Positions 11,328 through 11,505 of a stretch of DNA of 64,000 nucleotides are shown here, one piece after another (the first letter of the stretch is position 1; each line of letters starts with the position of its first letter). Location: contig OX597818.1 of NCBI GenBank assembly GCA_951406725.2, positions 96,410,001 through 96,474,000 on the forward strand. Reading direction: 5' to 3'. Made by a program: the position numbers and the translations under genes. The stretch is from Octopus vulgaris (lineage: Eukaryota). Under the pieces are notes generated by a model that was given only the letters and a program-made list of their open reading frames with translations, ran no database searches and was not told the DNA's origin.

Positions 11328-11505
11328 GTGACGCATATTTGCCATTTGAATATGGCTAACCCCTAAGGGTGGATGCTACTGTAGTTTGTAGCCCCAGGAA
11401 GATAGCATCCACCCTTAGGGGTTAGCCATATTCAAATGGCAAATATGCGTCACGATGTGTTACCGCTACTGTTTATAACTCGCTCTGAGATTTATCATTG
11501 CTTTT
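11328..11505. mobile_element. Fold-back fragment of the 353-bp hammerhead unit family
   Basis: Perfect 51-bp inverted arms at 11328-11378 and 11403-11453. Homologous to 15750-15825 and 16209-16310. Flanked by (TA)n. Confidence 0.9.

Follow-up and report, generated by a model that had tools for sequence, protein, structure and literature searches.

Two head-to-head insertions of a 353-bp PLE-type unit in Octopus vulgaris, and what their shared zone of inner ends suggests about how they were joined

The small element at 11328-11503 (element A) of a 64,000-nt window of Octopus vulgaris DNA, the window being the whole stretch that was analysed, reads from its sequence as a recent insertion of a non-autonomous Penelope-like element (PLE; here a non-LTR retrozyme), belonging to a subfamily about 11% away from a larger relative at 15705-16616 (element B). 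Both elements are head-to-head copies of one 353-nt unit, and all four of their inner ends lie within a single ~25-nt zone of it, from 0 to -24. The explanation that we prefer, and hold with about as much confidence as doubt, is double priming from two fixed starts, followed by end joining, with a template limit near 0..-24. Unit coordinates are counted from the T of TAGCATCC, which is 0, and the strand bearing the hammerhead is the sense strand.

The window has ~36% GC and 18% of it is masked as short tandem repeats. The protein-domain scan covered 112 of 123 candidate reading frames, the 11 omitted being largely simple repeat; no host gene was recognised in the 112 frames scanned, and the window looks like intergenic or intronic animal DNA. 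Searches with blastn and nhmmer found A and B as the only copies of the unit in the window. An exact 30-nt unit pattern gave no match in bacterial and archaeal contigs, a result that is uninformative for a eukaryotic element. The unit family is short, young and probably high-copy.

Element B carries the unit in full on each arm, with the following parts.

15705..16172, minus strand: left arm, 468 bp, one 353-bp unit plus 115 bp, with the tail at the outer end and the inner end at unit -16
15918..15962, minus strand: type I hammerhead motif of the left arm (Rfam RF00163, 32.2 bits against a gathering threshold of 34, E 2.4e-6)
16173..16208, no strand assigned: junction insert, 36 nt, made of re-copied pieces of unit 0..+15 and one short opposite-strand piece (segment parse)
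16209..16616, plus strand: right arm, 408 bp, one unit plus 55 bp, starting at unit -1/0, with the short end as its outer end
16404..16448, plus strand: type I hammerhead motif of the right arm, with a predicted cut after 16442, which is unit -121 and far from the inner ends

Each arm is thus one complete unit plus part, and the direct overlaps of 115 bp and 55 bp at 353-bp spacing constitute a partial tandem (pLTR), which A is too short to show. The right arm is nested in the left, and the two arms differ at two positions in the unit. The unit itself is non-coding, has no long ORF (the longest stop-free frame in the right arm is 66 aa), has a GC content under 50% as judged by reading its base make-up, and is predicted to be strongly folded as RNA (z -8.0). 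The RF00163 match is full-length with an intact core, scoring below gathering and with an E value that comes from a short search; nothing in the Rfam search of the window scored at or above gathering. At minimum energy the unit is predicted to fold with its hammerhead region as a long rod and not in the active ribozyme shape. There is one hammerhead per B arm and none in A, so that neither element has the at least two consecutive units of the ‘active’ retrozyme definition, and the unit lacks the RT and GIY-YIG ORF by which autonomous EN+ PLEs are recognised. The strand of the hammerhead fixes the polarity of the arms, which face each other with their 5' ends at the centre, have their 3' ends towards the TA repeats and so lie head-to-head. 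The PLE-type origin proposed in an earlier note on this DNA is supported by the hammerhead, the tail, the head-to-head arms and the TA target; that the clade is Neptune-like is our guess from the hammerhead and the TA target.

Element A is shorter and lies between two runs of the same microsatellite.

11269..11327, no strand: (TA)n target microsatellite, left flank of A (TRF)
11328..11378, minus strand: the inverted-repeat part of the left arm, perfect, unit +50 to 0; the ‘short’ end lies on its outside, within a predicted hairpin loop
11379..11402, minus strand: spacer, 24 nt, the left arm continued, unit -1 to -21/-24 (sequence comparison with the unit)
11403..11453, plus strand: right arm, perfect inverted-repeat part, starting at unit 0 (TAGCATCC)
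11454..11503, plus strand: ‘tail’, ~50 nt of unit sequence on the right arm only, unit +51 to ~+100
11505..11558, no strand: (TA)n target microsatellite, right flank of A (TRF)

The concept of a tail is taken from what PMC8557442 and PMC11167929 describe. The perfect arm of 51 bp compares with a longest perfect arm of 10-13 bp in 20 doublet-shuffles of the repeat-masked window. Against the 353-bp unit of B, element A shows 85-92% identity, with 14 of 123 compared positions differing (~11%), and the earlier description of a diverged sibling with perfect 51-bp arms at 11328-11378 and 11403-11453 was correct. The two arms of A are identical even at the four positions within 0..+50 where A differs from B, and the probability of such identity under independent decay is ~4e-6. 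Because the arms agree despite the 14 differences from B, A is a young copy of a separate subfamily and not a decayed B, the sole alternative being arm homogenisation after insertion. A and B had been called independent insertions, and this is supported: subfamily-specific bases occur on both arms, and the junctions differ. Element A is therefore a real, young, head-to-head, 5'-truncated insertion in (TA)n of an ordinary class, with any target-site duplication unreadable inside the repeat.

The arms of A are not nested. The left arm has 24 nt of upstream sequence that is absent from the right, and the right arm has ~50 nt of downstream sequence that is absent from the left. This requires either two templated syntheses or a later inversion of the spacer, since a single folded-back cDNA re-copies only its own content and cannot make A unless the 24-nt spacer was flipped afterwards. 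Flipping the spacer in an alignment does yield the topology of B. Held against the form expected of a snap-back, in which the arms are nested and turn at a terminal stem, A departs from it, and B is nested with a turn that is not clean.

Both outer ends recur between the two elements within ~3 nt. The short end lies at +50 in A and at +52/+53 in B, and the end of the tail at ~+98 to +100 in A and at +98/+99 in B; the earlier note, which had seen near-agreement at one outer end, was right about the short end and too modest overall, as the tail end agrees too. The one-sided tail is ~48-50 nt in both elements with its polarity swapped, being carried in A by the arm that starts at 0, while in B that arm bears the short end. 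In the predicted fold the short end falls in a hairpin loop (+47..+52) that belongs to a multi-branch domain; pairing of -5..+3 with +62..+70 closes this domain, with pair probabilities of 0.9-1.0. The sole in vitro study of PLEs reports that two RT starts bound the tail, that an ‘AC-rich stem loop’ is an RT start, that cutting and extension take place on both target strands, and that the hammerhead cut is not needed (PMC11167929). The outer ends of A and B are clearly programmed positions, and they agree with these two published starts. A role in closing the predicted start-site domain could by itself explain why the TAGCATCC motif is conserved. The substitutions between A and B show no significant structure bias, with 9 of 73 paired and 5 of 50 unpaired positions differing (Fisher p 0.78); five of the nine paired-position changes keep pairing, one of them as a double compensatory change, and four break it.

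The inner ends are at 0 and -21/-24 in A and at -1/0 and -16 in B. The right arm starts at unit 0 (11403) in A and at -1/0 (16209/16210) in B, and the left-arm inner ends of the two elements are 5-8 nt apart. A common breakpoint had been claimed for both elements; the right arms do restart at the same base (±1) of TAGCATCC, whereas the left ends differ by those 5-8 nt. Nor does the left arm of A end just after tagcccc (-17), as had been thought: its match to the unit runs unbroken from -11 to -21 and resumes at -23/-24, with 21 of the 24 spacer bases matching. The spacer contains the second half of a GCTAC/GTAGC hairpin, and a 9-nt near-palindrome lies at 11376-11384. The join in A shows no microhomology against the available sequence, which for the A subfamily ends short of -25/-26. 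For B the breakpoint 16172/16209 holds as a pair of coordinates but not as a simple turn, because 36 nt of re-copied junction sequence lie between. That insert parses into +9..+15, 0..+10, 0..+15, 0..+9 and an opposite-strand 0..-6, after which the arm begins from -1, and the pieces are mostly linked by 2-4-nt overlaps. TAGCATCC starts in the B junction at 16174, 16185, 16198 and 16210; these belong to one event and so are not four observations. The TAG at 0 and again at +13, together with the 9-nt near-palindrome at -6..+2, accounts for most of the links. In its make-up the insert is like those templated at joins during synthesis-dependent end joining (PMC2943611). Cleavage by the hammerhead was ruled out as the source of the inner ends, the cut lying at -121 and the zone at 0..-24. 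The anatomy, the end positions, the hammerhead motif, the non-nested arms and the templated nature of the B insert are all read directly from the DNA.

In the preferred account, a PLE protein acting in trans would cut both strands of (TA)n, and the free 3' ends would prime RT, one start lying in the hairpin loop at +50..+53 and the other ~48 nt downstream (+98..+100), a spacing that would account for the tail on one side. Head-to-head joining of the 3' ends of both cDNAs would follow, apparently blunt in A and with repeated short re-copying, as in synthesis-dependent end joining, in B. The use of two RT starts and the cutting and extension of both strands are taken from the literature; that double priming occurred at the A and B loci, the pathway of joining and the cause of the inner-end zone we infer. 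The zone from 0 to -24 would reflect a template limit, either because a partial-tandem RNA has its 5' end there or because RT stops at the GC-rich stems -5..+3 and -11..-25. If the RNA end sets it, A would derive from the first start-site domain of the partial-tandem RNA and B from the second.

That all four inner ends fall within ~25 nt suggests a template limit, whether RNA 5' end or RT stop, over a self-priming site. Of these, an RNA 5' end is the better fit within double priming, since the first and second start domains would yield A and B respectively and since one R2 protein mostly snaps back after full-length cDNA, a precedent for template-end-driven inversion (PMC11371274). Against an RNA end, the sequence at 0..-24 bears no mark of one and the hammerhead cut is at -121; the retrozyme RNAs described in PMC7229834 are, moreover, largely circular and endless. 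Against an RT stop, RT crossed the zone once per B arm and passed stronger stems, and for the arms ending at 0, RT would by then have copied through the helix partner +62..+70. Two features count against double priming itself: the right arm of B is nested in the left, and the spacer flip in A that yields the B topology is compatible with a snap-back. Another insertion in the window (element C, below), whose inner ends are 71 nt apart, also counts against the preferred account. A cognate RT or GIY-YIG gene was absent from the 112 of 123 candidate frames scanned, which gave weak RVT_1 and zf-RVT matches at 12906-14302 only. Those Pfam matches are below cut-off and mark a broken non-LTR retrotransposon remnant. 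Neither an autonomous partner of the unit nor a named PLE with a homologous pLTR was found within the window.

The simplest alternative is chance, in which PLE 5' truncation is variable, the ends of one insertion are generally close together, and the A/B match was picked afterwards. If the four ends are taken as independent and uniform, one match between the elements to within 1 nt is expected in 3.4% of cases, and a spread of no more than 24 nt over all four in 0.13%. Tying the ends of the same element within 25-75 nt gives 6.4-0.7% for the shared zone and 2.0-0.2% for the exact match and zone together; given a shared 25-nt zone, an exact match is expected in ~31% of cases. Conditioned on the observed offsets, the exact match stands at 3.4% and the shared zone at 2.5%, and exponential truncation nulls give 3.4-7% for the exact match, the upper value applying to a short truncation mean, and 0.15-1.1% for all four ends in the zone. 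Chance is helped by an exact match of 3.4-7%, by a shared zone of 2.5-6.4% once the ends are tied, and by the fact that this was a single comparison noticed among many features; it is hurt by the 0.2-2% for match and zone combined and by both B arms ending in the zone after a whole extra unit. We consider it unlikely, though worth real weight. The coincidence between A and B is a modest signal, with p 0.025-0.064 when ends are tied, post hoc and with n=2, and two copies are a lead, not a result. What needs a cause in any case is the closeness of both inner ends inside each element.

The earlier note had proposed that the inversion point is programmed. Non-random inner ends are suggested (n=2), but the self-priming by which it explained them is unsupported for A as it stands. 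In its full form, TAGCATCC would be a programmed self-priming or second-strand start: a tail-primed cDNA would pass the motif, fold back, be re-copied from 0 and be joined at the short end, with the spacer of A inverted later. Self-priming at PLE inverted junctions was already proposed by Arkhipova et al. in 2013, who infer it from palindromes at such junctions and who describe a case in which the direct pLTRs are 37 bp longer than the inverted one (PMC3846280). The restart base is alike (±1) in A and B and recurs four times inside the B junction, but those restarts are one event and arise from TAG repeats 13 nt apart. The site overlaps the 9-nt near-palindrome, one of seven tight palindromes of the unit, and the GCTA(C)/(G)TAGC hairpin, and the last strand switch in B uses the GTAG of the palindrome. 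Yet the hairpin is weak, at -2.2 kcal/mol in A and unfolded in B, and the site is not special, since a terminal snap-back stem of at least 4 bp is possible at 73 of the 353 unit positions, several of these stems being stronger (best -5.4). Self-priming would directly explain the near-symmetric arms and the nesting in B, and an older head-to-head pair in the window (element D) has a perfect 13-bp central palindrome. The arms of A, in contrast, are not nested, so that an extra spacer inversion would be required, and no microhomology is visible there. Both left arms overshoot the hairpin rather than turn there, to -16 in B and to -21/-24 in A, the latter being 7-10 nt past GCTA/TAGC. In vitro, finally, both PLE outer ends are RT starts (PMC11167929). 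We regard self-priming at this motif as rather improbable.

Another reading takes unit 0 as a hard template boundary for a telomerase-related RT, with A as a second, independent stop there. Read on the bottom strand, the B junction contains four stops at 0/-1, and three of these are followed by realignment of the cDNA, through its terminal CTA, to the second UAG, 13 nt back, twice cleanly and once with a 2-nt skip; the re-copied stretch lies directly 3' of the predicted 9-bp helix. Telomerase adds repeats at a template-boundary element, which offers an analogy. We do not favour a template boundary and would give it little credence, because on the top strand these letters fit ordinary end-joining synthesis by the host, and because copying should by then have passed the helix partner.

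That A and B descend from one pre-folded master already holding the junction is very improbable. The restart base is in common, and reversing the spacer reconciles the two topologies; but the junctions differ (no insert against 36 nt, left ends 5-8 nt apart), the tail polarity is swapped, and both arms bear the bases of their own subfamily, which would require arm homogenisation after divergence. We see next to no prospect that A is a MITE (derived from a TA-targeting DNA transposon), a hairpin of the miRNA type or a fold-back created in assembly, since perfect inverted repeats inside TA and Rfam miRNA models scoring on the hairpin are outweighed by a right side on which the inverted repeat is not terminal (50-nt tail), by A sequence that is internal and tandem in B together with a hammerhead, and by unlike flanks and non-nested arms. 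The miRNA candidates were rejected, as all Rfam scores are far below gathering (e.g. 41.6 bits against 200) and none passes.

Returning to double priming, its components can be set beside known systems. Non-LTR retrozymes are hammerhead repeats of 150-450 bp (Cervera & de la Peña 2020, PMC7229834), and a preprint (Li et al., 10.64898/2026.07.22.740005) argues that they arose from PLE pLTRs. The metazoan members described in these two sources are alike in their non-coding unit (here 353 bp), type I hammerhead, tandem arrangement, strong predicted fold and proposed PLE origin. They differ in that the tandems of A and B are partial, with one hammerhead per B arm and none in A, and are paired with an inverted copy, and in that circular RNA and cleavage are putative here; the word ‘inverted’ does not occur in the main text of PMC7229834. 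The standard PLE layout, as given by Craig et al. 2021 (PMC8557442), has an inverted 5'-truncated copy, a tail at one end, and microsatellite targets with a (TA)n bias. EN+ PLEs share with A and B the head-to-head inverted 5'-truncated copy, the partial tandem, the one-end tail, the microsatellite target and the palindromic junctions (PMC8557442, PMC3846280), whereas A and B lack an RT/GIY-YIG ORF and have a tail of ~48 nt against the 30-40 given there. The Poseidon PAc element of Anolis (Frangieh et al. 2024, PMC11167929) is alike in its two internal RT starts bounding the tail, its stem-loop start, its extension of both target strands, its AT-rich target and a hammerhead cut unused as an end; the joining of two cDNAs and the positions of inner ends are not addressed in that study, where ‘inverted’ occurs only for a blocking group. 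More broadly, R2 snap-back 5' junctions (PMC11371274), L1 twin priming and SD-MMEJ (PMC2943611) are alike in producing inversions and short templated inserts at 5' junctions. Both arms of A and B copy the same unit part. In L1 twin priming, by contrast, each of the two pieces represents its own part of one RNA.

Two further inverted insertions in the window belong to other families and so cannot test the recurrence of the A/B turn. Element C (30625-31383) is a third young (TA)n insertion, in which a partial tandem of a 534-bp unit is joined to a 140-bp inverted arm that is 100% identical; its inner ends are ~71 nt apart with a 2-nt overlap and its outer ends ~130 nt apart. A pattern search found no hammerhead core in C, which is PLE-like with an unusually long ‘tail’. 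In element D (43335-43706), a head-to-head pair of greater age, each arm has a minimal hammerhead-like core, and Rfam gave no hammerhead match; its perfect 13-bp palindrome, with a 3-nt loop (43498-43526), lies at the centre despite the diverged arms. Minimal hammerhead-like cores are also present in an inverted pair (~91%) at 14367-14527 and 14802-14959, whose two members lie on either side of a long run of (TAT)n/(TA)n, and the pattern search gave solo hammerhead-like cores at 42038 (+) and 21128 (-).

The remaining repeats of the window are of other kinds. A dispersed family occurs at 9735-10068, 19339-19662, 24275-24471, 34019-34202, 51706-52005 and 52085-52285, often beside (AAT)n/(TATC)n; we take this (AAT)n-associated family to be SINE-like, and the repeats of the window may resemble cephalopod SINEs. 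It was considered as a control (at least six copies) and dropped, being dispersed and showing direct duplications only. Three short MITE-like elements with imperfect inverted ends of 50-65 bp are found at 18128-18376, 50301-50501 and 57205-57456, and a 123-bp direct duplication (88%) lies between (AAT)n runs at 33538-33811.

How PLEs build their tandem and inverted ends is a stated open question (PMC8557442), and no map of PLE inversion breakpoints was found in the literature searched, which lay mostly outside subscription papers and supplements. The in vitro work explains the outer PLE ends only, and a family such as that of A and B, with its two fixed starts, is a good substrate for the inner ones. 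Should the template-boundary reading prove true, RNA structure would fix PLE inverted junctions, and these would be an in vivo record of reiterative synthesis by PLE RT. As for A, its non-nested arms provide, from a single locus, a clean argument for two cDNAs.
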